Of a DNA stretch of 64,000 bases, positions 6,366-64,000 are shown in pieces (position 1 is the stretch's first letter; every line of letters begins with the position of its first letter). A program made the position numbers and the translations under genes. The DNA is from Candidatus Poriferihabitaceae bacterium (lineage in GTDB: Bacteria > Pseudomonadota > Gammaproteobacteria > Arenicellales > Poriferihabitantaceae), in assembly GCA_965203265.1 (NCBI GenBank), contig CBDBBV010000002.1, positions 1,554,773 to 1,618,772 of the forward strand. Reading direction: 5' to 3'. The notes beneath the pieces were generated by a model. The model worked only from the letters and a program-made list of their open reading frames with translations, was not told the DNA's origin and searched no databases.

Positions 6366-6513
6366 GCAATCAACTCCTAAGGGTCTGGCCCACAAATAAA
6401 AGGGGCGCGATTGTACAACGGGGCGGGGCGGCGTGTACACCACGCGGGTGCGACCGCCGTGGCGAAACTGCTAGAATTGCGCCCCCCAACCACGACCCAC
6501 GATCCATCACCCC

Positions 6514-7782
6514 ATGCCTGCCGCGCCGCCCCCTGATACGGATGCCGCTGCCCTGCGCGCCCGCCATCGACAATTCCGCGAGGACTACGCCCGACTGAAG
6601 GGGCTGTCCCTGTCTCTGGACATGACTCGCGGAAAACCCTCCGCGCAACAACTCGACCTGTCCAACCGGATTCTCGCCCTTCCGGGCACCGATTATGTGG
6701 ACGATGACGGCACCGACACGCGCAATTACGGCGGGCTGGACGGGCTGCCGGCAGCCAAGCGTTTGTTCGGCGACATCCTCGGCGTCGCGCCGCAGCACAT
6801 CATCGTCGGCGGCAATTCGAGCCTGAGCATGATGTACGATGCGCTGGCGCAAGCCTGCCAGTTCGGCGTGGTGGACGGAGATCGTCCGTGGAGCCGCATC
6901 GCCGGAAGAAAATTCATCTGCCCGACGCCCGGCTATGATCGGCACTTCCTCATAACCGAGCATCTTGGATTCGACTTGATCGCCGTGGAAATGGGTCGCG
7001 GCGGCCCCGACATGGATCGAGTGGAATCTCTGGTCGCCGGAGACGAGACCATCAAGGGAATCTGGTGCGTGCCCAAATACAGCAACCCCGACGGCGTGTG
7101 CTACAGCCGCGAGACGGTGAGGCGGCTGGCCGGCATGAAAACCGCGGCGGCGGATTTCCGCATCATCTGGGACAACGCCTACGCCGAGCACCACCTCGGC
7201 GACCACCGCCCCACGCTGGAAAACATCGCGCGCCACTGCGAATCGGCGGGCAATCCGAATCGGGTTCTCCAATTCGCCTCGACCTCGAAGATCTGCCATC
7301 CGGGCTCCGGCGTGGCCGCCCTGGCCGCCAGCCCCGCCAACATCGCCGAAGCCAAAACGCACATCGAGGTGAAGAGCATCGGGCCGGACAAGGTGAACCA
7401 ACTCAGGCTGCTGCGATTATGCGGCGATGTAGCCGCACTCCGAGCGCACATGAAAAAACATGCGGCACTCATCAAACCCAAATTCGACCTAGTGCTGGAA
7501 ATCCTACAGCGGGAACTCGGCGACCTGAACATCGCCCAATGGAGCAAACCCCAAGGCGGCTATTTCATCAACCTGAACACCGCCGACGGCCAAGCCAAGC
7601 GCGTAGTACAACTGGCCGAAGAAGCCGGAGTAAAACTGACCGCCGCCGGCGCAACCTACCCCTACGGCAAGGATCCACGCGACCGCAACATCCGCATCGC
7701 CCCGACCTTCCCACCGCTACCCGACCTCGAACAAGCGACCGAGGTACTGACGGCTTGCGTGAAACTTGCTGCGAGTGAATAA
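6514..7782 (+). CDS. PLP-dependent aminotransferase (class I/II fold)
   Basis: 422-aa ORF with aminotransferase-like architecture (YVDDDGTDTRNYGGLDGLP, NPDGVCYS, a FASTSK-type Lys region). Confidence 0.7.
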   Translation: MPAAPPPDTDAAALRARHRQFREDYARLKGLSLSLDMTRGKPSAQQLDLSNRILALPGTDYVDDDGTDTRNYGGLDGLPAAKRLFGDILGVAPQHIIVGGNSSLSMMYDALAQACQFGVVDGDRPWSRIAGRKFICPTPGYDRHFLITEHLGFDLIAVEMGRGGPDMDRVESLVAGDETIKGIWCVPKYSNPDGVCYSRETVRRLAGMKTAAADFRIIWDNAYAEHHLGDHRPTLENIARHCESAGNPNRVLQFASTSKICHPGSGVAALAASPANIAEAKTHIEVKSIGPDKVNQLRLLRLCGDVAALRAHMKKHAALIKPKFDLVLEILQRELGDLNIAQWSKPQGGYFINLNTADGQAKRVVQLAEEAGVKLTAAGATYPYGKDPRDRNIRIAPTFPPLPDLEQATEVLTACVKLAASE

Positions 7783-36316: not shown

Positions 36317-36393
36317 TGGCGGAGCGGACGGGGCTCGAACCCGCGACCCCCGGCGTGACAGGCCGGTATTCTAACCAACTGAACTACCGCTCC
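36317..36393 (-). tRNA. tRNA-Asp (GTC)
   Basis: The reverse complement GGAGCGGTAGTTCAGTTGGTTAGAATACCGGCCTGTCACGCCGGGGGTCGCGGGTTCGAGCCCCGTCCGCTCCGCCA is nearly identical to E. coli tRNA-Asp. Confidence 0.95.
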
Positions 36394-36401
36394 TGAGATG
36401 A

Positions 36402-36477
36402 TGGTGGGCGCTGCAGGGCTCGAACCTGCGACTTTCGCCTTGTAAGGGCGACGCTCTCCCAGCTGAGCTAAGCGCCC
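36402..36477 (-). tRNA. tRNA-Val (TAC)
   Basis: The reverse complement GGGCGCTTAGCTCAGCTGGGAGAGCGTCGCCCTTACAAGGCGAAAGTCGCAGGTTCGAGCCCTGCAGCGCCCACCA has the anticodon loop CTTACAA. Confidence 0.95.
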
Positions 36478-43083: not shown

Positions 43084-43170
<87 letters not shown>

Positions 43171-43200
43171 TACCTCGTCTTGCCGTCCACCGCGAATTGC

Positions 43201-43276
<76 letters not shown>

Positions 43277-43309
43277 TGACCGCGCCTCGCGCGCAAAATT
43301 GGGGTGAAC

Positions 43310-43386
43310 GATGGGACTCGAACCCACGACGGCCGGAATCACAATCCGGGGCTCTACCAACTGAGCTACGTTCACCATAATTTCAT
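43310..43386 (-). tRNA. tRNA-His (GTG)
   Basis: The reverse complement GGTGAACGTAGCTCAGTTGGTAGAGCCCCGGATTGTGATTCCGG...TCACCCCA has the extra 5' G typical of tRNA-His. Confidence 0.9.
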
Positions 43387-43430
43387 TCATCCGGCCTGCG
43401 CCCGCACATATAAGCTTTCATGGCGCGCCC

Positions 43431-43507
43431 GACAGGATTCGAACCTGTAACCTACGGCTTAGAAGGCCGTTGCTCTATCCGATTGGGCTACGGGCGCAAA
43501 GATTGAA
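43431..43507 (-). tRNA. tRNA-Arg (TCT)
   Basis: The reverse complement GCGCCCGTAGCCCAATCGGATAGAGCAACGGCCTTCTAAGCCGTAGGTTACAGGTTCGAATCCTGTCGGGCGCGCCA. Confidence 0.9.
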
Positions 43508-43530
43508 AATTTTACAAAACTGGTCGGGGT

Positions 43531-43607
43531 AGAGAGATTTGAACTCCCGACATCCTGCTCCCAAAGCAGGCGCGCTACCAGACTGCGCTATACCCCGCTT
43601 TTCGCCG
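43531..43607 (-). tRNA. tRNA-Pro (TGG)
   Basis: The reverse complement CGGGGTATAGCGCAGTCTGGTAGCGCGCCTGCTTTGGGAGCAGGATGTCGGGAGTTCAAATCTCTCTACCCCGACCA. Confidence 0.9.
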
Positions 43608-49162: not shown

Positions 49163-52100
49163 TCAGAAACGCGCCTCTCCCTTCAATAAAATCGCATGGT
49201 CGGCATCCGCGCGCTCGTTCCCATGCTCGCGGCGTTCTCCGTGCAGGCGCAGGGTGAATTGCCCGCCGGAAGACCAATCCAACCCTATGCGGTACAGTTT
49301 GCCGTTGTCTTGCAGGGTCAAACCGCTCCACGGGGTCAGCAAGCCGTCTCGCTCGCCGGGGGTGGACAGGCCGTAGCCCAGATTCATTTCCAGTCGTCCG
49401 CTGGGGTCGTGAGTGGTCGGGGTGGTTTCGCGTAGGCCGTTCGACCAGATTTGGCCGGTGTTGCCGTCCCCGCCGTGATTGCCGTAGCCGGGGCTCATTT
49501 CGAAGGACAGGCCGTGACCGCCTGCGCTGGGGGATAGGCGTAGGGAGGCTTGTATTCCCCATTCCTCGTAGTCGCTGCGGCCTAACAGGGTGTGTGCCGA
49601 GGTTTCGGCGTTCCAGCCGGTTTTCGGGTTGGCGTAGCGCACGCTGCCGTGGAATTCCGCGCCGGTGCTGGTGTTGCCGTCTACGCCGTCTCCGCCGTCG
49701 TGGCGTAGGCCGAGGGAGATGGAGGGCGATAGGTGGCCGCCGCCGCTCAAGTGGCGGCTACTGCTCGCTTCGGCGGCGAATCGAATCAGGGTGGTTTCCA
49801 CTGTCATGGCGGCAACTTGGGCGGTTTTTTCCACCTCCAAGTCGGTGCGCGCGATTTCCCCCTTGAGGCGCACACTGGCGTCATCGCGCGACCACAACAG
49901 GCCGCTGCCGCCCAGACTCACGGATTGCAGGGTTACATCGTTGGATGACGATTCGCCGTCTTGCGGTGTGATTTCCACTTCGCCGGTGCCGTAGCCGGCG
50001 GTGGCCCACCAGTGGCGTTGACCCGAACGCCAGCCGAAGTAGGGGTGGATGGCAAGTAAGTCGATTTCGTAGTCGCCCTTGCTGACTCCGCTTGCGCCGC
50101 CGCTTTCGCTAGTGTCCTCGTATTCCAGTTCGCCCTCACTCCACGACAAGGCCACGCCCGCCAGCAGGTTTTCGCGCACCTTGTGATCCACGCCGATTTG
50201 CGCGCCGTACAAACTGCCGTCGAAGTCCACGCCGTCATTCTCGCCGGACAGATTGCGGTATTCGCCGCTGCCCCACAGGGAGGTTTTACGCAGGCCGCCG
50301 CCCTCTTCTCTGGTGTGGAACGGCAGAACGAAATCGGAGCCGTCCAGCAAGTCGCGCAGGGGGATGTTGTCGTTGACCAAACCCGGCGCATGGGTTTGCA
50401 AGACGCCCGCGAGGGAACTCTGCCCGCCGAGACTGGCCGAGACACCACCGCTCCCGCTCCCATTCAATGCCCGCCCCACTCGCGTGGAAATGGCGCCGGT
50501 TACCCGACTGGCCACGGCGCGCGCCACTTCGGGCAGGGCGGTTTCATGCAATCTCTCCGACTGTATCTGCGACACGATTGTCAGCACGAGGGCGCGCTCG
50601 GTGCGCAAAGACGGGTTGGTGCTTGTGGCGGAGATGGTGATGGTTTCGCCGTCGTCGTCCACCTCATCGGCGATGGTGGTTAGCGTAACCGTCTCGCTAT
50701 GGCGGCCTGCGGCAATGGTGAAGGTCTTGGTGGTGAGGGAATAATCGACGCCCTCGGTGGCCGCCGTGTTGCCGCTTGCGTCGATGGTCAGCGTTACCAC
50801 ACTGCCGCCGGACGGTGCTGGGCGGTTCAGCGTTGCCGTAACCACGGATTCGCGGCCTTCGGGGATGTCCGTGGGGCTGGCGGCGAGGGTCAGGGTGGTC
50901 GGTATGGCCGCTCTGGTTATGCTTACTCGGTAGTTCGTGGTACTGCCGTCCTCGGCGGTTACCTCGACCACAATGGCGTTGCCCCCCTCGGCGAGGGAAA
51001 TGGCGCTGCTGTCCGAGCCGCTGTTCACCGCCGTCAGGCTGCCGCTCTTGCCGACCTTGATGGAAGCGGCATTGTGCGCCGTGGTAGGCGTCAATATCGC
51101 ATGGGTAACCTCGTTGCCCACCGGAGCCCGATAGGCCGTGGTGGAGGCCGAGAAAGAGGGCGTCAGGGCGAGGGTGGTGAAAGTGCTGCCGTCTGTGCTG
51201 CTTTTGGCGGTTAGGGCGCTCAGATCAGCGTTGTCGGATTGGCCGCTTCCCGATGGCGCCGCTCTGGTTATGCTCACCGTGTAGGTGTTCTTGGCGCCGC
51301 CCGATGCGGTTACCTCGACCAAGATGGGGTTGGCGCCCACAGAGAGGGGGATGGCGCTGCTGTCAACGCCGCTCGCCACTGAGTTGAGGTTGCCGCTCTT
51401 GCCGACTCGTATGGTGGCGCCGCTTTGTGCCGCGGTGGGGGTCAGTATCAAGTGGGTAACGGCGTTGGTCACCGAGGCCGAGTAGGCGGTGGTGGTGTGG
51501 GAGAAGGTTGCCGGGTTGAGGGCGAGGGCGGTGAAGGGGCCTGCCGAACTGGTGGCGCGCTGGGCAGTCAAGGCGGTCAAATCGGTCGGTGCCGGTTTGT
51601 CGTCATCGGTGATGGTGATGGCAACCGAGTTGTCGGTGCCGGCGGTTACCGAGGAAGGCAGGGTGCCGAGGGCGACTGTGAGGGTTTCGTCCTGTTCGTC
51701 GGTGTCTTGGTTGGTGGAAAGCGAGCCGGTGGCGGAGGTTTGGCCGCTTGAGATGGTGATGGCGGCTAGGCTGCCGATGTCGGCGGCTTCGGCGCTGCCT
51801 CGGGTGATGGTCAGCGGGATGCGCACATTGGAAGTCAGCGCCGCCGAGAGGGTTGCGGTGATGGTTACGGAGGAACCTTCGGGAACCGGATTGGGGGCGG
51901 CGGAGAGGTTGACAGTGGGGGTGGTTGCTGTTGGGCAGGATGAGCCGATGCTCAGGGAGATGGTGTTGCCGGTGGCCCAGGGTAGGTTGGCGTTGGGCCA
52001 AGCAATAAAGATTCCCGCGGCACCCGATAAGGAAAACTCGGTCGAGCCCACACAGAATTTCAATGCTTTGAGGGCAGTATTCGGTAAAGCATTGATAAGA

Positions 52101-52582
52101 ATATTCAATTGACCGCTTCTAGTCCCAGAATTGTTGTCGTATATGCCCGTAAAATGATAATTCGTGCCGCCAACCGTGAAACTGTTGTTCGTCAACTTGG
52201 AGTCGCAGTCCGATTTAAGGTTGCAACCCAAAAGCTCTGTGTTCACCGTTCCCACCGTAAACGTCGCCGACCACACGGTGGTGGTCTGAGCGGAAGCGGG
52301 AACAGCCAGCAGGGAGAACACGCCCGCCAACAAGACGATGACAAGGCGGCGGATGGATGATTTCCGCCCAACTTTCGAGGAATGAACTTGGCGGAAAAAC
52401 GGCAGGCGTACAGAGCGGCTCGCCGAGTCGAATGTTAGCTTAGAAGGGGGGGGGGGGGGGGGGGGGGGGGGGATTATGTTCAGATCGGCATTCACATTCG
52501 CACCAGCGGCGAGAACGGCCGAGGCGGTGCGGGCGTGGGTGGCGGCAGTGGTGGATCGGATGATTCGGGTATGGATGTTCAT
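49163..52582 (-). CDS. autotransporter outer-membrane protein with Calx-beta and cadherin-like passenger repeats
   Basis: Strong SD (GGAGGAA, 7 nt, ATG at 52582). The hydrophobic signal segment is LVIVLLAGVFSLLAVPASA. The passenger has two Calx-beta-like and two cadherin-like beta-sandwich repeats. The C-terminal beta-barrel of about 300 aa has alternating aromatic residues and ends in ...LLKGEARF. Confidence 0.8.
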   Translation of the reverse strand: MNIHTRIIRSTTAATHARTASAVLAAGANVNADLNIIPPPPPPPPPSKLTFDSASRSVRLPFFRQVHSSKVGRKSSIRRLVIVLLAGVFSLLAVPASAQTTTVWSATFTVGTVNTELLGCNLKSDCDSKLTNNSFTVGGTNYHFTGIYDNNSGTRSGQLNILINALPNTALKALKFCVGSTEFSLSGAAGIFIAWPNANLPWATGNTISLSIGSSCPTATTPTVNLSAAPNPVPEGSSVTITATLSAALTSNVRIPLTITRGSAEAADIGSLAAITISSGQTSATGSLSTNQDTDEQDETLTVALGTLPSSVTAGTDNSVAITITDDDKPAPTDLTALTAQRATSSAGPFTALALNPATFSHTTTAYSASVTNAVTHLILTPTAAQSGATIRVGKSGNLNSVASGVDSSAIPLSVGANPILVEVTASGGAKNTYTVSITRAAPSGSGQSDNADLSALTAKSSTDGSTFTTLALTPSFSASTTAYRAPVGNEVTHAILTPTTAHNAASIKVGKSGSLTAVNSGSDSSAISLAEGGNAIVVEVTAEDGSTTNYRVSITRAAIPTTLTLAASPTDIPEGRESVVTATLNRPAPSGGSVVTLTIDASGNTAATEGVDYSLTTKTFTIAAGRHSETVTLTTIADEVDDDGETITISATSTNPSLRTERALVLTIVSQIQSERLHETALPEVARAVASRVTGAISTRVGRALNGSGSGGVSASLGGQSSLAGVLQTHAPGLVNDNIPLRDLLDGSDFVLPFHTREEGGGLRKTSLWGSGEYRNLSGENDGVDFDGSLYGAQIGVDHKVRENLLAGVALSWSEGELEYEDTSESGGASGVSKGDYEIDLLAIHPYFGWRSGQRHWWATAGYGTGEVEITPQDGESSSNDVTLQSVSLGGSGLLWSRDDASVRLKGEIARTDLEVEKTAQVAAMTVETTLIRFAAEASSSRHLSGGGHLSPSISLGLRHDGGDGVDGNTSTGAEFHGSVRYANPKTGWNAETSAHTLLGRSDYEEWGIQASLRLSPSAGGHGLSFEMSPGYGNHGGDGNTGQIWSNGLRETTPTTHDPSGRLEMNLGYGLSTPGERDGLLTPWSGLTLQDNGKLYRIGLDWSSGGQFTLRLHGERREHGNERADADHAILLKGEARF
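52446..52472. repeat. 27-nt homopolymer (G27 on plus, C27 in the coding sense) inside the autotransporter 5' coding region
   Basis: Counted directly. The run of G spans 52446-52472 and encodes nine consecutive prolines at codons 37-45. Confidence 0.95.
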
Positions 52583-52773
52583 GGTTTCATTCCTCCAAGT
52601 GGATTGCGGCGGCCGGATGACTCGGCGGTCAATTTCACGGTGAAGGGGCAGATTATAACCATTTTGCGCAGATTGGCAACCCCTTGTACGATGCCAATAC
52701 ATTCCGCCTCCGGATGGTTTTCCGCGATGAGCCGCGCCGCCTCGGTTGATCGCAGGCGCCGTCGGTAGCCAAA

Positions 52774-53916
52774 TCAGCGGTAGCCGGTCATTTCGAGATA
52801 CCCCCGGCCGATCACCCGCCCCGCCTCGCGCACCACCACCATGCCCTCCCAATAGCGCACGGCGAGGGCCATTTCCTGAGCGTCGAGTACCGCCTCCACC
52901 CGCCAGCGGCGCTTCAGGGGTGCGATTTCCAGCTCCCACGCCACCGGGTAGTCGACGCCGCCGGAGTTGCGCCACCAGCGTAGCGGGGTGAGGGCGACAT
53001 CGCCCGCGCGCAGGGTTTCGGGCGGCAAATCGGCGAAGCGGATGCTGCCGGCGCTGTGGGGGTCGGTGTGGCCGGCGTGGTCGCGCAGTCGGTAGAACAT
53101 GAGGTCGACGCCGTCTTGCAGTTGCAGGGCGAACCAGTCCCATCCGGCCTGCTGCGGCGCCAATGCGCTGCTGCTCCATTCGCGGTCGAACCACGATAAA
53201 CCGGATACCGCTTGCGCCTGCCCACCGCCGAGGCGCAGGGTGCCGTGGGTGGCGAGGCGGCTGATGGAGTAGTAGTAGGAGGCGTTGCCGGATTCGGCGC
53301 TCTTGCGGCTGAGGCCGTCTTCGCCCTGCAGAGTCGGCGGCACTTGCGGCCTCAGAGTCAGGTCCAGGTCGAAATCATCGGTGCGCGCGCGCAGGCGCCA
53401 CGGGCAACCGGCGCAGGGCGCGGCTACTTGCCAATCGCCCAGCCACAGTTTGAACGGCGATGGAGGCGAGGCGGCGCCGGCCAGCCCCATCGCTTCGCGG
53501 GCGAAACGTTCGTGGGCGAAGTGTTGCCGCCGGTGGGGGTCGGTCAGGGCGACATGCGCCATCCACACCTGATGCGCCGCCCAGCGGGAAGGACGCCCGC
53601 GAATCGCCGTGGCCGGAGGCGTCAGGGCAATGCGGAAGAAGGTCGCCTGAAAGCCGTAACGCTGCCCTTCCTCGGTGGCCACATTGCCGTTGAAATGCCA
53701 CCATTCGTTGCGGAAGCCGTCATGGGGGGCGTGATCTCGCGGGAAGGCGAAGTCCCGCGGCTTTTCGGCACGGAGAAAGGCCGGATGCACGCTGCCGCCG
53801 AGAGCCTGCTGCAACGGCACCGACGGCGGCTGATCGTCCGGCGAACAGGCCGCCAGTAGGCATATCAGCGCCACGCAGGCGGCGGAGGCGGAGGCGGGCA
53901 GGCGCATGGCGGTCAT
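52774..53916 (-). CDS. lipocalin-like / carotenoid 1,2-hydratase (CrtC, AttH-like) lipoprotein
   Basis: Lipobox LICLLAAC. Motifs HDGFRNEWWHFNGNV...GFQATFFR. The start ATG at 53916 overlaps the upstream permease stop (ATGA). Confidence 0.75.
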   Translation of the reverse strand: MTAMRLPASASAACVALICLLAACSPDDQPPSVPLQQALGGSVHPAFLRAEKPRDFAFPRDHAPHDGFRNEWWHFNGNVATEEGQRYGFQATFFRIALTPPATAIRGRPSRWAAHQVWMAHVALTDPHRRQHFAHERFAREAMGLAGAASPPSPFKLWLGDWQVAAPCAGCPWRLRARTDDFDLDLTLRPQVPPTLQGEDGLSRKSAESGNASYYYSISRLATHGTLRLGGGQAQAVSGLSWFDREWSSSALAPQQAGWDWFALQLQDGVDLMFYRLRDHAGHTDPHSAGSIRFADLPPETLRAGDVALTPLRWWRNSGGVDYPVAWELEIAPLKRRWRVEAVLDAQEMALAVRYWEGMVVVREAGRVIGRGYLEMTGYR

Positions 53917-57928: not shown

Positions 57929-58609
57929 ATGAGTGTGGCGGCAACGGCCAGAAAATCGCCAGACGGGGTCGCTACTAGCGATTTGATATGTAGCGCGATC
58001 ACCGGCCAAAACGAAACTCTGTTTCCGCAAGTACTTGCACTCCATGTTCAGGACGGTGCCCTCGTTGCGGATGTAACCTACGGGAAGGGCGTTTTCTGGA
58101 AGAAGGTTCCCGAGGACAAATATCAAGTGCTGCCCACCGATATAAGCATGGGCGTCGACTGCCGTGATTTGCCATATTCAGATGAATCGATTGATTGCGT
58201 GGTGCTGGATCCACCCTACATGGAAGGGTTGTTTCGGCCGAAAAAAGACAGCATGGCGGGTAACGGCAACTATGCCGCATTTCGCAAAAACTACTCGAAC
58301 GGCGACACTTACCACGGCGAGCCGAAATATCATGATGCCGTTTTAGACTTGTATTTTTCCGCTGGCCGGGAAGCGTTGCGCGTTCTCAAGCCGAAAGGTG
58401 TGTTTATCGTCAAATGCCAAGATCAGGTGAGCGCGAATATACAGAACCTTACACACGTCTCACTGATCAACGAATACGCCCGATATGGTTTTTACGCCAA
58501 AGATCTTTTTGTGCTGGTACGAGCCAACAGACCATCGGTGAGTCGCATTCTCAAGCAAGTACACGCACGCAAGAATCATTCCTACTTTCTCGTTTTCATC
58601 AAGAAATAG
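57929..58609 (+). CDS. DNA methyltransferase (DPPY-type, N6A/N4C) with no intact partner nuclease
   Basis: An AdoMet-like motif [12 protein letters not shown] is followed by the catalytic VVLDPPY. GC is lower than the flanks. The start is 57929 or 57911, both in frame. Confidence 0.75.
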
Positions 58610-58611
58610 CA

Positions 58612-58734
58612 GTGGGCATTCTCGACGATTGGGGAATCACCATAGACGATTTAAACATCGTTTTGAGTGAGCGCCCGGCTATTCGCGGCATCCTCGTCGG
58701 CTTTCTAGCCGAGTACAAGCCCCCAACGAAATGA
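58612..58734 (+). pseudogene. 40-codon remnant ORF after the methylase, possibly the N-terminus of a lost restriction endonuclease
   Basis: GTG at 58612 lies 3 nt after the methylase stop and encodes VGILDDWGITIDDLNIVLSERPAIRGILVGFLAEYKPPTK. It ends where high-GC DNA and the GATase gene begin (ATGA overlap at 58731-58734). The functional assignment is an inference. Confidence 0.3.
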
Positions 58735-59432
58735 AAAACCGCATCGTCCTCGTCGATCACCACGAAAATCCGCCGGATGATCGGGTGTCCACCCATCTGG
58801 CGGCGCTCGGCTACGACCTCGACTGGCGCCGTCCGGTGAACGGCGACCAACTCGGCGAACCCGCCGGCGATGTGGCCGGATCGGTGTTGTTCGGCGGCTT
58901 GCACAATGTGGATGAAATGGATGAACACCCGTTCCTGCACGATGAAATTGCTTGGATTCACGCCTGCCTCGCCCGCGATGTGCCGCTGCTCGGCATCTGC
59001 CTCGGCGCCCAGTTGATCGCCCACGCCCTCGGCGCGAAGGTCGCACAAATGGCCGGTGGGCAATGCGAATTCGGCTATTATCCCATCACCCCGACCGCCG
59101 AGGGGCGCCGATGGATGCCGCAGCCGCTACATGTTACCCAAGCCCACTTCCAACAATTCGACCTACCGAGCGGGGCAACCCTGCTGGCAACCGGCGAAAA
59201 CTGCGTCAATCAGGCGTTCCGCTACGGCGAGAATATCTATGCGTTGCAATTTCATCCCGAGGTTACGCTGGGAATTCTGCGGCGCTGGCAGGATGAGATC
59301 GGAGATGATTTCAACGCGCCCGGAGCGCAGACGCGGGAGGAGCAAAACGCGCTGGCGGCTCGCCATGATGCGCGTCAGCATGACTGGTTTGTGGGGTTTT
59401 TGGGGCGGTTGTTCGGGCGAGATAGCGGCTGA
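58731..59432 (+). CDS. class I glutamine amidotransferase (GuaA-N-like)
   Basis: A nucleophile elbow (PLLGICLGAQL) and a HPE triad region (ALQFHPEV). Confidence 0.8.
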   Translation: MKNRIVLVDHHENPPDDRVSTHLAALGYDLDWRRPVNGDQLGEPAGDVAGSVLFGGLHNVDEMDEHPFLHDEIAWIHACLARDVPLLGICLGAQLIAHALGAKVAQMAGGQCEFGYYPITPTAEGRRWMPQPLHVTQAHFQQFDLPSGATLLATGENCVNQAFRYGENIYALQFHPEVTLGILRRWQDEIGDDFNAPGAQTREEQNALAARHDARQHDWFVGFLGRLFGRDSG

Positions 59433-59721
59433 AAACGCTTGTGGGTGGGATTGGGTTACGCCGACACCGCCTGAAGCGGGAAACTTGATTGGAGGGAGCA
59501 AGCGTTCCGGCAACGCGGAAACCGGATTCTGGTTGCCGCTCCCGATGTTGCAGATGGTAGAGCCGGTAATGACGGCGCCCGCCGGCCACTTGGACCCAAG
59601 GCGGGCGCCGCCTGCACCGCACGCTCCGCGCGAGGCGCGGTGCGCTCGACATGGCCGACCCTGGACAGCCCTTGCACACTCCCCGCGCCCGTAGGCGCGA
59701 GAACTCCGGCGGCGGGCCGTG

Positions 59722-59832
59722 CTGGCAACGCGGAAACCCACATTATTGTTCCGGTTTCCGGTGGTGTTCCTGTTGCGGTTGGCGGAGCGGAGATTCCGCG
59801 GATTGTTGTTCCACGAACCGCCCCGCAACACC
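59722..59832 (-). repeat. DGR template repeat (TR), 111 nt
   Basis: It matches the VR (61475-61585) at 98 of 111 positions. 12 of the 13 mismatches are at TR adenines on the minus strand. Asn codons AAC/AAT are abundant. It begins 6 nt after the RT stop. Confidence 0.9.
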
Positions 59833-59838
59833 CGGCGT

Positions 59839-60966
59839 TCAGGGGCCGACCAGACTTCCGGGCCAACCCGGCGGTGCCGCCGGATGGCGCGAAAGACGTT
59901 TTGCGGCGGAGCCGAACGGCTCGCCGCGAAGAAGTGCCCGGCGCAAGCGCCGAGTATTTGCGTGCCGCGCGTGCGCCACCCAGCTCGCGATGTGCGGACG
60001 CGCCTCCTCCGGAGTCATGGTGCCGGCCCGCACCCGATCGCGCATACTGCGCAGCCGACCACGGAAGCGGCGTACATTCTCCTCGGGCAACTGCCGCCGA
60101 CCATCCGGCAGCAGAACATAGCCGAGAAAGGTGGTGGGCTCGGTCGTTTCCGCGATGTAGGTCTTGCGCGGATGCAGGGAGAGTCGACGCCGGGCGAGAT
60201 ACGCCGCGATGCGTTGACGCCACTCCGCCAGCACTTCGGGGCTGTCGTGAAACAGGGCGAAGTCGTCCACATAGCGCAGATACCCCGGCGCGATCAGTAC
60301 TTCCTTGACGAAGTGATCCAGACCATCGAGATGCACATTGGCGAACAGCTGGCTGGTCAGATTGCCGATGGGCAGGCCGCGGCGGCGCTCGAAGGGCGTG
60401 AGCAGGTCGTCTCCCGGATAGTGGATATGCACCGGCTCCTGCGGATTCGAGCCGTCGATGATGGCGTCGATAAGCCACAACGTGCGCTTACATGCAATGC
60501 GGCGGCGCAAGTCCGCCTTCAGTATTTCATGGTCGATGGCCGGGAAGTAGCGATAGAGATCGCAACGCAACACATGCGCGAATTTGTCGCGGAAGCGTTC
60601 GTAGCGGGTAACCGCTCGGTGCGTGCCCTTGCCTCGGCGGTTGGCGTAGCTGTCGAAGATGAAGCCGCGCTCGAACAGCGGCTCGATTACCGCGAACAGC
60701 GCATGGTGCACCACCCGATCGCGAAACGGGGCGGCGGACACGGTACGCGGCTTGGGGTCGCGGATGGCTATCTCTACATAGCGCCCCGGTCGCCACTTTC
60801 CGGCAAGCAACTCGCGTTCCAGACGCAACACCTCGCGCTCCAGATTAGCGAGGAATGCGGCCACCCCGGGCTTCCTGCGCTTGCCGAGCGCGGCGCGCTG
60901 TGCCGCCGCTTCCAGCACGGAAAACGAGGCGATGCGCGGAAACAGGCCGTCAGTTCGTTGCGGCAT
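59839..60966 (-). CDS. DGR reverse transcriptase
   Basis: RT motifs include the catalytic YVDD box (GYLRYVDDFALF) and the DGR-diagnostic motif LPIGNLTSQLFANVHL. The start at 60966 (MPQRTDGLF...) overlaps the avd end by 17 nt. Confidence 0.9.
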   Translation of the reverse strand: MPQRTDGLFPRIASFSVLEAAAQRAALGKRRKPGVAAFLANLEREVLRLERELLAGKWRPGRYVEIAIRDPKPRTVSAAPFRDRVVHHALFAVIEPLFERGFIFDSYANRRGKGTHRAVTRYERFRDKFAHVLRCDLYRYFPAIDHEILKADLRRRIACKRTLWLIDAIIDGSNPQEPVHIHYPGDDLLTPFERRRGLPIGNLTSQLFANVHLDGLDHFVKEVLIAPGYLRYVDDFALFHDSPEVLAEWRQRIAAYLARRRLSLHPRKTYIAETTEPTTFLGYVLLPDGRRQLPEENVRRFRGRLRSMRDRVRAGTMTPEEARPHIASWVAHARHANTRRLRRALLRGEPFGSAAKRLSRHPAAPPGWPGSLVGP

Positions 60967-61321
60967 GATGGGTTCTCTGCCAGCCGCCCACCAGCCGCCC
61001 GACCTCATCCACGCGCCGCGCCGCGTATTCGTAGCGGCGTCGGTCGAGGTAGCTCAAGTCCTTGGCGAGACGCAGTAGTAGGCGCAGTTTGTCGAGGTCG
61101 ATGTTGACTCGCTTGAGGATGCGGGTGCGGTCGCGGGTGAAGGTTGCCTCGGTGAGAGCTTCCAAGCAGATGACGGCGGTGGTTTGGATGCGGTCGCCGA
61201 GGAGGAACTTTTGGCTACGGGGGAATCGATCCAGAGTGGGGATCAGCCATTGCGCGAGCTGATACATCGCCTCCAGCGCCGGGCCGCTTTGGCGGGAGGG
61301 GGTTGTGGCGTTGCGGGTCAT
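60950..61321 (-). CDS. avd: DGR accessory variability determinant (Avd, four-helix-bundle protein)
   Basis: It is about 120 aa and basic and helical. ...LAQWLIPTLDRFPRSQKFLLGDRIQTTAVICLEAL...RLAKDLSYL is typical of the Avd / 23S rRNA-IVS four-helix-bundle family. The start is uncertain (61375, 61321 or 61267). Confidence 0.75.
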   Translation of the reverse strand: MTRNATTPSRQSGPALEAMYQLAQWLIPTLDRFPRSQKFLLGDRIQTTAVICLEALTEATFTRDRTRILKRVNIDLDKLRLLLRLAKDLSYLDRRRYEYAARRVDEVGRLVGGWQRTHHAATN

Positions 61322-61410
61322 GTTATTGGGGGCTTTGGTGGTGGGGGTTGTGGTGGGAGGGGTTATTCCACCCATACATCATGACGACACCGCCCAGCGA
61401 AAAAATCCGA

Positions 61411-61428
61411 CCGGGGGCAAGCCCCCGG
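61411..61428 (-). other. GC-rich hairpin (7-bp stem, 4-nt loop) downstream of the VR
   Basis: CCGGGGG-CAAG-CCCCCGG lies 47 nt 3' of the VR homology end, between the target gene stop and avd. Confidence 0.5.
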
Positions 61429-61458
61429 TACCCCCGCAAGAGGCAAAGAGACAAAGAT

Positions 61459-62274
61459 TCATGGGGCGATTGTCCTGGCAACGCGGATACCCACAGAAGT
61501 GCTCCGGTCCCCGGTGGTGCTCCTGAAGCGGTTGGCGGAGCGGAGATTCCGCGGATGGCTGTACCACGAACCGCCCCGCAACACCGCATGTTCACAATCT
61601 CCCGCCTCCCACACACTCCCATCCGTCGGCGCTCCTTCGTAACTTTCATTCCAACAATCTCCAACCCACTCCCATACATTTCCGTGTACATTGTACAAAC
61701 CGAACGCATTCGGCGGATACTTACCCACCGTCACCGTCTTGCCGACTTTTTTGCCATAGTTCGCTTTTGACGTTGAAATCCTGTTTCCCCAGTGATAGCG
61801 CCCCGTGGTTCCCGCCCGCGCCGCGTATTCCCATTCCGATTCACTCAAGAAGCGATATGTCTCCCCGGTCTCGCCACTTAGCCAGTCCAAATATCCCTGT
61901 GCATCATCCCAGCCCACATTGATGACCGGACGCCTCCCCCAGCCCCAACCTGCATCACCTGGTTCATACCCGCCACAGCCACCGGCGGAAACGCACGCAT
62001 CCCATTCATCGAAGGTTACCTCGTACACCCCAACCGCAAACGGCTTCGCGATGGTTACTTCATGCACCGGCCCTTCATCGTTGTCCCGCTCCCCCTCCGA
62101 ATCCGGCGAACCCATCATGAACGAACCGGCCGGTACAACCACCATCTTGGGGCAGTCCGCGCAATCGCGGAAGGTATCGCCGGGTTCCAGTTGGTTTTGC
62201 GCCGGGGCGGATATCGGCAACAGGCCGAGCATTACAGCCGGCAATAGTGATTTGATTGTCAATGATATGTTCAT
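61459..62274 (-). CDS. DGR target: secreted formylglycine-generating-enzyme (SUMF1)/C-type-lectin-fold protein with a C-terminal variable region
   Basis: Signal peptide MNISLTIKSLLPAVMLGLLPISAPA and FGE-sulfatase domain motifs (PVINVGWDDA, YRFLSESEWEYAARAG, NAFGLYNVHGNVWEWV, RGGSW). The VR occupies roughly the last 42 codons, ending 4-5 codons before the stop. Confidence 0.85.
   Translation of the reverse strand: MNISLTIKSLLPAVMLGLLPISAPAQNQLEPGDTFRDCADCPKMVVVPAGSFMMGSPDSEGERDNDEGPVHEVTIAKPFAVGVYEVTFDEWDACVSAGGCGGYEPGDAGWGWGRRPVINVGWDDAQGYLDWLSGETGETYRFLSESEWEYAARAGTTGRYHWGNRISTSKANYGKKVGKTVTVGKYPPNAFGLYNVHGNVWEWVGDCWNESYEGAPTDGSVWEAGDCEHAVLRGGSWYSHPRNLRSANRFRSTTGDRSTSVGIRVARTIAP
61475..61585 (-). 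repeat. DGR variable repeat (VR), 111 nt
   Basis: It aligns base for base with the TR. The substitutions are confined to TR-adenine positions, apart from one T-to-A near the 3' end in the putative IMH. Confidence 0.9.
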
Positions 62275-62325
62275 TTTCGGTTCTCCTTTATCGCTAGTTA
62301 CATGATTTGGGTGATTTCTGCATTA

Positions 62326-62772
62326 CTAGGCCATGGCTGGGACTTTGGGCTTTCTTTCCATGCCATATATCATTTCCGGCAAATCCGCACATAACCAGGG
62401 TAGCGCACGGCAAATGAAGCAATCGATGGGGATTCTGACTGCGTCGGAATGAGAGATTTTCACTACAACGAAATTTTCGTATTCATCCTTCGATATCCTA
62501 TAAAAATAGAAATCCCGATTAACCCAAATCGAGTTATCAAGCGCGACTCTGACTACGGAATCTGTAATACCGTGAACCAGTTCGCGCACATCAAAAATCT
62601 CCCCAGCACTATACAGGCTAAATATGGGCGCATTCGAATGACCTATATCGCTCGATCTGATTCTTAAATCGATGAGATCGGCAGGTTGGGGATCGTGCAT
62701 ATTCAACAATTCATCCAGAGAATTCACTCTTTGCATTTGTCGAGAGCCACGTTCTTCAATTGAATCTGTCAT
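62326..62772 (-). CDS. hypothetical protein (AT-rich gene upstream of the DGR target)
   Basis: 148-aa ORF whose start overlaps the upstream ORF stop (ATGA at 62769-62772). It is markedly AT-rich. No recognisable family. Confidence 0.5.
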   Translation of the reverse strand: MTDSIEERGSRQMQRVNSLDELLNMHDPQPADLIDLRIRSSDIGHSNAPIFSLYSAGEIFDVRELVHGITDSVVRVALDNSIWVNRDFYFYRISKDEYENFVVVKISHSDAVRIPIDCFICRALPWLCADLPEMIYGMERKPKVPAMA

Positions 62773-63296
62773 GATGATTTACCTCTTTCAGGTGTATTGG
62801 ATTTTGTGTTTCGTCTATTTCTGTATTGCAAGAATGTCAAGACAAACCACGCCAGCATTGCTGAACAAGCAAGGAGAAAACTCGTAAAAGAAACCTTTGC
62901 CAAGTTAGTCAAATTATAAAATTCTCCCTTGGTAACACACTCAGTGAAATACTGTGAAGGTAATTGCAAAGAAGTTTTGCAACTTCCAATGGAATTCTGT
63001 TGATAAATTTCCTTGAAGAAACTTGAAATTATTGATTGAATTAAAAAGTTGAATACATATGTTATGGCGCAAAATACCACACACACGAGAAGTATATTGG
63101 GATAGGGAATCCTTCCGACACTACCACCTCTATCGCTTCCAAGCGCCTCATTGATAAGGGTTTCCTTGACCAGAAAAACGATCACACCTATCATAAAATA
63201 GCAAGTTATGTTGGTGGAATAAGTAAGCACATCATATGAATCGATGTATCGCATGAGAAAATAGTTCATTTCGGTTGGCGCTTCGATCATCATCAT
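62769..63296 (-). CDS. hypothetical membrane protein (AT-rich)
   Basis: 175-aa ORF with 3-4 hydrophobic segments. This is the lowest-GC stretch of the window. No recognisable family. Confidence 0.5.
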   Translation of the reverse strand: MMMIEAPTEMNYFLMRYIDSYDVLTYSTNITCYFMIGVIVFLVKETLINEALGSDRGGSVGRIPYPNILLVCVVFCAITYVFNFLIQSIISSFFKEIYQQNSIGSCKTSLQLPSQYFTECVTKGEFYNLTNLAKVSFTSFLLACSAMLAWFVLTFLQYRNRRNTKSNTPERGKSS

Positions 63297-63301
63297 CCCC
63301 C

Positions 63302-64000
63302 CTACTCCACTTCCACAATAATGTGCGCGCTCGACCCCGCTCCCCCGCGATGGCGCCAGGATTGGGTTTGGGTGTTTTTGCCCTCCACGCGGATTTCTCC
63401 GGTGTTCTCGTCAGCATATGAGCAGTTGCCCTTGTTCCCGCTGCCGTTTATGGCAAACAATTTCACGCGGTTGCGACCCTGTTGCACCCGCACATCGTCG
63501 CAGTCCCAATCATTGTCGATTTCGCCGTAGAACACGCTCCCGCCATTCACCGATACCCGCACCCGATCGCCGTCCTCGCATTCGTGGTCGCGCACGCAGA
63601 CTCGTATTTCTCGCTGACCCTCGGATATGGTGATGTTGAAATCGCGCAGGGGTTGCGCCGAAAAGGTGTCCGGTGCCCAGTTGGTGCGGACGATTTTGTA
63701 AGTGTCCTCGTCGTCACGAACATGCCGCTCGAATTCACGCTCGGCGGAGGAGGAGGATTTTTCGAAGTAGCAATAACTTTCGGAACGGGCTGGCTCGAAT
63801 CCCTCGTCCTCCAGATATTCGTGGAAGGCGTTTTCCACCCCCATTGTGTAGGAATAGTCGCCGAGGAATATCGCGCTGTAATATCGCGTGCGCGGATCGT
63901 CCGAAAAGGATCCCATGATACAGAATATGTAGTCATCGTCATCAGCGTTTGCAGGGGCCGGGACGAAACTGGCGAAAATCAGGAGCAGTGCTGTGTAGCC
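63302..64000 (-). CDS. hypothetical secreted protein, 5' end beyond the window
   Basis: The frame of ORF 63302..63916 stays open to position 64000. The extra residues (...ALLLIFASFVPAPANA/DDDDY) look like a signal peptide, so the real start lies beyond the window. The C-terminus is Cys/Asp-rich and probably beta-rich. Confidence 0.5.
   Translation of the reverse strand, partial: GYTALLLIFASFVPAPANADDDDYIFCIMGSFSDDPRTRYYSAIFLGDYSYTMGVENAFHEYLEDEGFEPARSESYCYFEKSSSSAEREFERHVRDDEDTYKIVRTNWAPDTFSAQPLRDFNITISEGQREIRVCVRDHECEDGDRVRVSVNGGSVFYGEIDNDWDCDDVRVQQGRNRVKLFAINGSGNKGNCSYADENTGEIRVEGKNTQTQSWRHRGGAGSSAHIIVEVE

Follow-up and report, generated by a model that had tools for sequence, protein, structure and literature searches.

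An apparently complete chromosomal diversity-generating retroelement of the avd-RT-TR layout in a Poriferihabitaceae bacterium

Does the minus-strand gene cluster near the end of a 64,000-nucleotide stretch of DNA from Candidatus Poriferihabitaceae bacterium (contig CBDBBV010000002.1; the whole stretch analysed is hereafter termed the window) make up a complete diversity-generating retroelement (DGR), and is the position of its template repeat (TR) behind the reverse transcriptase (RT) gene a peculiarity of this locus? The cassette occupies the minus strand from 62274 down to about 59570 and comprises four co-oriented parts: the target gene, avd, the RT gene and the TR. These parts very probably constitute a complete, chromosomally encoded DGR in the already catalogued avd-RT-TR layout known as Architecture B2. 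An initial annotation, made from the letters alone, had proposed such a complete and co-oriented element, and the proposal was confirmed in every coordinate on the minus strand, the start of avd being considered below. The main parts are as follows.

61459..62274, minus strand: target (variable protein) gene, 271 residues; Pfam PF03781 FGE-sulfatase, E = 1e-52 over residues 41-267
61475..61585, minus strand: variable repeat (VR), 111 nucleotides, in register with the TR; target codons 230-267 of 271
60950..61375, minus strand: avd, 141 residues; NCBIfam NF033474 DivGenRetAVD equivalog, 100.2 bits (cut-off 80)
59839..60966, minus strand: DGR RT gene, 375 residues; IGNLTSQ (motif 4) and YVDD (motif 5); Pfam RVT_1
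59722..59832, minus strand: TR, 111 nucleotides with 27 adenines and 11 AAY codons; it starts 6 nucleotides past the RT stop codon

The TR and VR differ at 13 positions, 12 of which are TR adenines (hypergeometric P = 4.9e-8, given 27 adenines in 111 nucleotides), and 9 of the 11 AAY codons of the TR are altered in the VR. With N placed at each TR adenine, the resulting pattern had no match in the 64-kb window beyond the TR and the VR themselves, against 0 expected. The VR lies near the 3' end of the target gene with four codons left after it, and the 111-nucleotide TR sits directly behind the RT stop codon, both as initially annotated.

Avd is an accessory protein that most, though not all, DGRs possess. 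Besides the equivalog model, the one encoded here matches Pfam bAvd (7e-20) and the PHROG family 'Avd protein of DGR' (8.5e-24), and no sequence-level match to it was found in the PDB. The identity of this gene stands as first annotated; the open reading frame (ORF), given initially as 60950-61321, reaches 61375, and the internal ATG at 61321, which would yield 123 residues, is an equally possible start. The RT gene overlaps the end of avd by 17 nucleotides and begins with MPQRTDGL, a start common to its relatives. Both the YVDD box and the IGNLTSQ motif that had marked it as a DGR-type enzyme are present in the translation of 59839-60966, and the (I/V/L)GxxxSQ motif is specific to DGR RTs (PMC3521204). 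Three-dimensional structures point the same way: the best PDB match is 8ub7 (3e-41; a 328-residue 'Reverse transcriptase'), which we take to be the Bordetella phage enzyme bRT, followed at a distance by the best group II intron RT (1e-19) and retron-type RTs (about 1e-7). The group II intron model TIGR04416 is the top NCBIfam match all the same, at 121.8 bits and hence far under its cut-off of 300, while the only matching retron model scores 39 bits against a cut-off of 235. An Rfam scan of the window at gathering thresholds found neither group II intron RNA nor retron RNA, and PADLOC gave only generic RT matches. The affinity to retron or group II intron enzymes that the initial annotation had named as the observation to speak against a DGR was therefore not seen, given the best match to 8ub7, the missed cut-offs and the SQ motif.

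More than 8000 homologues of the RT were retrieved at E <= 1e-20, the top ones having 375 residues and the same start methionine. Chromosomal RTs from metagenome-assembled genomes (MAGs) of many phyla are 62-86% identical to it, the best plasmid-borne ones, which are cyanobacterial DGR RTs, about 49%, and the best phage RT 39%. A look-up of the exact RT protein of the window found no record. A 98%-identical RT (P0001) lies on a 1517-nucleotide contig that ends at the RT stop and holds neither TR nor VR. Database entries for RTs of this clade often span 420-440 residues, 45-65 too many (P0081 and P0109 are examples), and many of these overlong entries bear a spurious Pfam FGE-sulfatase match, because the ORF was read through into the TR. 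The locus thus flags a recurrent annotation artefact, in which RT ORFs of its relatives run into the TR and are labelled FGE-sulfatase, and this artefact could serve as a quick marker of the RT-TR layout.

The initial annotation had regarded an RT followed by its TR as unusual, which proved mistaken. DGRs with the TR downstream of the RT were defined as 'group 2' by Schillinger et al. 2012 (PMC3521204), and Wu et al. 2018 (NAR 46:11; PMC5758913) list the order avd-RT-TR as Architecture B2 and give FGE-sulfatase proteins as the largest category of DGR targets. The present cassette has the features of Architecture B2, namely avd, RT and TR on one strand, no further accessory gene and the target upstream. 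We compared it with 80 genomic loci whose RTs are 62-86% identical. The TR begins at or just past the RT stop in 68 of the 80, and in 64 of these 68 a VR is located about 420-750 nucleotides upstream of the RT start, yielding the order target-avd-RT-TR. The relatives' own TR/VR pairs are adenine-biased as well, with for example 19 of 20, 15 of 16 and 21 of 22 mismatches at A. Loci with the TR after the RT come from Gamma-, Alpha- and Betaproteobacteria, Acidobacteriota, Binatia, Spirochaetia, Dehalococcoidia, Latescibacterota and others. The layout does differ from the BPP-1 archetype, as had been noted, but BPP-1 is the only contrast; within the clade the order seen here is the rule.

Some relatives serve more than one target. 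In seven of them (L052, a Dehalococcoidia MAG, and L029, L038, L050, L061, L065 and L073), two to three adenine-biased VRs per TR were found both upstream and downstream of the cassette; multi-target versions of the avd-RT-TR architecture are thus common. In the nearest relative with a named genome (MAG OZ241870.1, about 438-447 kb; L018 and L064), a distance of about 7.4 kb separates two copies of the RT, and one copy matches residues 1-283 of the query only and may be truncated.

What does the cassette diversify? The target gene has a Shine-Dalgarno sequence AAAGGAG 7 nucleotides 5' of its ATG, rated good to strong as a ribosome-binding site. Read by eye rather than by a predictor, the N terminus of the protein resembles a Sec signal, with K8, the hydrophobic stretch LLPAVMLGLLPISAPA and then APA-Q. 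Together with the FGE-sulfatase match, this agrees with the signal-peptide-bearing protein of FGE/C-type-lectin fold initially placed at 61459-62274. Its PDB matches are led by PvdO (5hha, 4e-66), followed by human and bacterial formylglycine-generating enzymes (FGEs, about 1e-20) and Treponema TvpA (2y3c, 4e-13). In the alignment to human FGE, whose C336 and C341 we take to be the catalytic cysteine pair, the position of C336 holds a VR-variable serine and that of C341 falls in a 3-residue deletion. Furthermore, the target scores 250.4 bits with the equivalog model NF051459 for PvdO (dihydropyoverdine dehydrogenase), under the cut-off of 500. Given the loss of both catalytic positions and this low score, the target is, as far as its sequence tells, neither a catalytic FGE nor a true PvdO, and is best described as a secreted non-catalytic protein of FGE/C-type-lectin fold. 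By analogy with BPP-1, roughly 11-12 Asn-coded positions in the ligand-binding face of this protein would vary.

The RNA elements known from BPP-1 were looked for around the TR with the help of the related loci. Five features of the minus strand are relevant.

59843..59852, minus strand: 5' strand of a bracketing duplex, UGGUCGGCCC, inside the last RT codons; pairs with 59652-59661
59714..59720, minus strand: TR 3'-flank strand ACGGCCC; pairs with 59665-59671 (GGGCUGU) in a TR:spacer duplex of 7 bp
59680..59703, minus strand: UACG-tetraloop stem-loop, shortly past the TR; a candidate of the Avd-binding type
59645..59671, minus strand: spacer core GGGCUGU-CCA-GGGUCGGCCA-UGUCGAG, holding the 3' strands of both duplexes and a CCA linker
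59571..59643, minus strand: two further GC-rich hairpins (59614-59643 and 59571-59612) at the spacer 3' end, from the centroid fold

RNAalifold, run unprompted on a 67-locus alignment of the TR 3' end and 90 nucleotides downstream, returned the TR:spacer duplex and the stem-loop. The former is paired in 93% over the 67 loci with compensatory changes in 4 of 6 pairs, and its start coincides exactly with the end of TR/VR homology, as expected if cDNA synthesis begins at the adjacent base. The stem-loop has 11 predicted pairs, 10 of them with compensatory changes, is 94% paired against 34-46% in slid controls and is present in the single-sequence centroid fold too. Taken jointly, the two helices have 93.9% of cells paired (34-46% when slid) and compensatory changes in 14 of 17 pairs. 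The bracketing duplex of 10 bp, whose 3' strand is GGGUCGGCCA at 59652-59661, has 98.1% of cells paired over 58 loci, against 25-49% in slid controls, with compensatory changes in 8 of 10 pairs. Covariation scores are 0.55 for the alignment of duplex and stem-loop and 0.50 for the bracketing duplex, compared with 0.04-0.16 for slid controls. All three helices are intact in the window, two of them via G-U wobbles. The bracketing duplex emerged only once the search was anchored on the conserved CUG...CC motif; free prediction of RNA-RNA duplexes between the sequences upstream and downstream of the TR was messy, with energies at shuffle level, and was discarded.

In the spacer core, the linker CCA at 59662-59664 joins the two 3' strands, and its second C and its A are invariant. 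Across the 58-67 loci, which span many phyla, the columns G, U, C, A and CAUG do not vary, giving a near-invariant core GU-CCA-GGG..CAUG. Hairpins comparable to those at 59571-59643 were seen by eye in most relatives. Rfam held no relevant family for the TR and spacer RNA, either at gathering thresholds or at E <= 1.

These elements find counterparts in BPP-1, where a 140-nucleotide spacer downstream of the TR gives the priming adenosine Sp A56, which ends a 7-bp TR:Sp duplex and stands beside the first template base (PMC6182149). Cryo-EM further revealed an Avd-binding stem-loop and a duplex of sequences up- and downstream of the TR; of 278 DGRs with Avd, 207 were predicted to have similar RNA elements, among them 'cPRT Stop' duplexes that bracket the TR, and UNCG tetraloops are common in the stem-loops of Pseudomonadota DGRs (bioRxiv 10.1101/2023.10.23.563531). 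By this comparison the RNA topology matches that of BPP-1, except that the whole module of 5' arm, TR and spacer stands behind the RT and not between it and avd. The functions of the three helices are assigned by analogy only.

A further hairpin of possible importance lies past the other repeat.

61400..61429, minus strand: GC-rich hairpin and T-run (stem-loop 61410-61429), ACCGGGGG-CTTG-CCCCCGGT, from the terminator-like scan

This hairpin has an 8-bp GC-rich stem and a 4-nucleotide CTTG loop and is located between the target gene and avd, 45 nucleotides downstream of the VR. A similar hairpin, CC(A/G)GGGGGC..GCCCCC(T/C)GG, occurs in most of 64 relatives examined, mostly 32-45 nucleotides past the VR. 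In BPP-1, a GC-rich hairpin or cruciform after the VR, with a stem of 7-10 bp and a 4-nucleotide loop, is needed for efficient retrohoming; phage DGR hairpins have a GRNA loop and lie 4-34 bp from the VR (PMC3240598). The stem-loop at 61410-61429 is thus a plausible candidate, by analogy, for a target-site hairpin or cruciform.

What is seen directly are the parts and their families, TR/VR differences specific to adenines, and helices backed by covariation; by analogy with Bordetella phage BPP-1 we infer co-transcription, a priming site, Avd binding, current activity and a ligand, and propose a putative model for the mechanism. Initially, avd, the RT gene and the TR would be transcribed together, with the TR and a structured spacer of about 150-260 nucleotides forming the 3' untranslated end. 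As this RNA folds, the TR would be clamped by the 10-bp duplex, to which the last RT codons contribute one strand and the spacer the other, and pairing of the TR 3' flank with the spacer over 7 bp would bring a spacer nucleotide beside the first template base, predicted at 59721-59722. The priming nucleotide may be U59665, which is invariant, or one of the bases next to it in GU-CCA; the presumed priming region is 59662-59671. The tetraloop stem-loop would bind Avd. Afterwards, the RT-Avd complex could cis-prime cDNA synthesis through the TR, misincorporating opposite adenines. Finally, the cDNA would replace the VR at the 3' end of the target gene, aided by the shared 3' homology and the GC-rich hairpin 45 nucleotides downstream.

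Beyond the spacer hairpins lies a further, decayed repeat.

59493..59550, minus strand: decayed partial TR/VR 3' end, about 58 nucleotides, reading ..GFRVAGTLAP; exact 15-mer GGTTTCCGCGTTGCC at 59509-59523

Relative to the TR, this copy has a 13-nucleotide deletion, and it is absent from all 68 relatives with the TR after the RT. The repeat at 59509-59523 was considered as a second TR or decoy and rejected, being absent from those 68 relatives and aligning as a decayed VR end with the 13-nucleotide deletion. In some relatives (L029, L038, L052, L061 and L073) an intact second target follows directly past the TR and spacer; in L029 the gene spans 6486-7487 and its VR 7356-7483. Since several relatives have an intact second target in this position, the decayed copy probably stems from a second target gene that has been lost.

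Several observations weigh against a complete element that works as modelled. The lone non-adenine mismatch is a T>A change (TR 59735, VR 61488) that turns Phe into Ile; it is most simply read as a later point mutation of the VR, because the TR and the nearby decayed copy both retain T. In the spacer core, the window deviates at 59648 on the minus strand, with U in place of the A found in at least 90% of the 67 relatives (AUGUCGAG versus AUGA[U/C]GAG). The loop of the post-VR hairpin is CTTG and not the phage GRNA, its distance of 45 nucleotides exceeds the 4-34 bp of the phage elements, and hairpin plus T-run could equally be a terminator alone, separating transcription of the target from that of avd-RT-TR. 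A scan for sigma-70-like promoters found no sites. In addition, an 84-nucleotide VR/TR pattern with N at the TR adenines gave 0 matches in metagenome and genome contig collections, which seem not to contain the genome of the window.

Some of these points would also be accounted for if the DGR were structurally intact but now silent or decaying, its VR having been diversified earlier and since fixed. The non-adenine mismatch within the VR, the T in the spacer core and the empty promoter scan are what such a history might leave, and the neighbouring decayed VR/TR fragment indicates that the locus has already lost sequence. We nevertheless regard a silent element as unlikely. Every ORF is full length with its catalytic motifs kept, and all three RNA helices are intact, G-U wobbles contributing in two of them. 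One to three non-adenine mismatches are common among the relatives, and one relative (L006), the only one to do so, shares the deviant base at 59648. A complete DGR with its machinery preserved thus remains the preferred reading.

Is the element cellular or phage-borne? The window encodes tig (trigger factor), clpX, lon, htpG, priA, a ppiD-like chaperone, an autotransporter, a MacB-type ABC transporter, an Fe(2+)-trafficking gene and seven tRNAs. For Lon, identity reaches 76% with a 'Candidatus Poriferihabitaceae' MAG and about 70% with other uncultured Gammaproteobacteria, which makes the host an uncultured gammaproteobacterium. A DGR residing in a prophage or mobile element and diversifying a phage receptor-binding protein, as in BPP-1, is very improbable here. 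It could draw on the PHROG matches of RT, Avd and target alike and on the two flanks of the cassette, where a phage-type orphan methyltransferase (57935-58609) and, at the opposite end, an AT-rich two-gene insert (62326-63296) are located. However, none of the window proteins scanned was of capsid, tail, terminase or integrase type, and from about 29.6 to 59.4 kb the scanned genes are ordinary cellular ones; the closest RTs belong to MAG chromosomes of many phyla and not to phages (62-86% versus 39% identity); and the target has a Sec signal and lacks a tail-fibre domain. The cellular nature of the DGR put forward by the initial annotation was thereby upheld, with chromosomal housekeeping genes as neighbours and no phage structural genes seen.

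That the TR-like sequence is merely the leftover 3' fragment of a duplicated FGE-family gene, beside an unrelated RT of group II intron or retron type, has a negligible probability and is refuted: although the translated TR reads as an FGE C terminus (Pfam 3e-4), a second and clearly decayed fragment of this kind lies nearby and a group II intron model is the top NCBIfam match of the RT, ordinary divergence is not expected to put 12 of 13 differences on the adenines of one copy (P = 5e-8), the adenine-masked pattern search speaks against a strand-composition artefact, the RT stays far under the group II and retron cut-offs with no corresponding RNA found by Rfam, and the DGR SQ motif, a bona fide Avd next door and the pairing of RT and TR in 68 loci all belong to a DGR.

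Further features of the surroundings were recorded. Two paralogues of the target outside the window, P0123 (280 residues, 73% identical) and P0124 (300 residues, 69%), have signal peptides of their own and VR-like C termini. They probably lie on the same 2.26-Mb contig (2,261,425 nucleotides) as the target and could be either remotely placed targets of this TR or parts of other DGRs; the best match to them in the genome contig collection was at 59%. Testing at the protein level for descent of their VRs from the TR has no discriminating power, as nearly the same TR frame is common to the whole family (family median, 34 of 37 positions consistent). Directly upstream of the target, at 62326-63296 on the minus strand, two overlapping small AT-rich ORFs encode 148 and 175 residues, the second hydrophobic, and had no Pfam, PHROG or PADLOC match. 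The G+C content is 0.48 over 62001-64000 against 0.56-0.67 in the remaining window, and 62326-63296 looks like a small foreign insert. Abutting these ORFs and co-oriented with them, a 204-residue ORF of normal G+C content (63302-63916, minus strand) has several cysteines and acidic runs and no family match. On the plus strand, 57935-58609 encodes an orphan N6/N4 DNA methyltransferase with a DPPY motif (phage methyltransferase PHROG 24333, E = 1e-68); the G+C content over 58001-60000 is 0.59, no restriction partner was recognised, and the overlapping ORF 58414-58734 had no matches. Farther away on the minus strand are a 1343-residue ORF (49163-53194) with cadherin-like beta-sandwich repeats and an autotransporter beta-domain, whose G+C content at second codon positions is unusually high (0.58), five tRNA genes adjoining tig (43084-43597; Leu, Lys, His, Arg and Pro) and a tRNA-Asp/tRNA-Val pair between the ppiD-like gene and lon (36317-36477).

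This DGR is an ordinary but well-preserved example, its architecture and target class being already catalogued and its clade very large and environmental. As a discovery it carries little weight, for hundreds to thousands of DGRs with the same architecture and target class are already on record. It is useful as a clean reference example, in which the avd-RT-TR layout retains the BPP-1 RNA topology with only the position of the module permuted, and it yields a testable prediction of the priming region, 59662-59671. The sole mildly new angle is the sharply conserved, covariation-supported RNA module that has no Rfam family. Tentatively, and with somewhat more doubt than confidence, we suggest that this module around the TR is a distinct, uncatalogued family of structured RNA, apparently specific to a very large clade of cellular DGRs. 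Its parts would be the bracketing duplex with an RT-encoded arm, the TR:spacer duplex, the tetraloop stem-loop and the core GU-(C/U)CA-GGG...CAUGAUGAG; the clade counts over 8000 homologues of the RT, and its loci come from Pseudomonadota, Acidobacteriota, Binatia, Spirochaetia, Chloroflexota and others. If this is true, a covariance model of the module could find TRs and predict priming sites from sequence, and the RT C terminus would be under a joint constraint of protein and RNA structure.

Compared with the BPP-1 DGR (mtd-avd-TR-brt), the present element shares Avd and an SQ-motif RT, adenine-specific transfer from TR to VR and a C-terminal VR in a C-type-lectin fold. The likeness extends to the RNA, with the order of 5' arm, TR and structured spacer, a TR:spacer duplex, a stem-loop and a bracketing duplex, and, as a candidate counterpart, to the GC-rich hairpin after the VR. 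It differs in gene order, with TR and spacer behind the RT and the bracketing duplex thus having its 5' arm in the last RT codons and not in the 3' end of avd; in its chromosomal location; in its target, a secreted FGE-domain protein where BPP-1 has the tail-fibre protein Mtd; in the hairpin loop, CTTG against GRNA; and in the length of the RT, 375 against 328 residues. The DGR of Treponema denticola likewise diversifies a non-catalytic variable protein of FGE fold, TvpA, the structure of which is solved (2y3c; E = 4e-13), but that element is of Architecture C, the HRDC-containing class, according to Wu et al. (PMC5758913). The target is much nearer to PvdO (4e-66) than to TvpA. PvdO, the periplasmic pyoverdine-maturation protein of Pseudomonas, is its closest solved scaffold (5hha; 227 bits over residues 28-268), and both appear to be periplasmic proteins of FGE fold; unlike PvdO, however, the target reaches only 250 bits against the 500-bit cut-off and has a VR where PvdO has fixed sequence, and the window proteins that were scanned include none from pyoverdine genes. 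The nearest known system is Architecture B2 with category 'b' FGE-sulfatase targets (Wu et al. 2018), from which the locus shows no difference in kind: it has the same order and strand of avd, RT and TR, and its target is an FGE-sulfatase protein with a C-terminal CLec-type VR and no extra domains.

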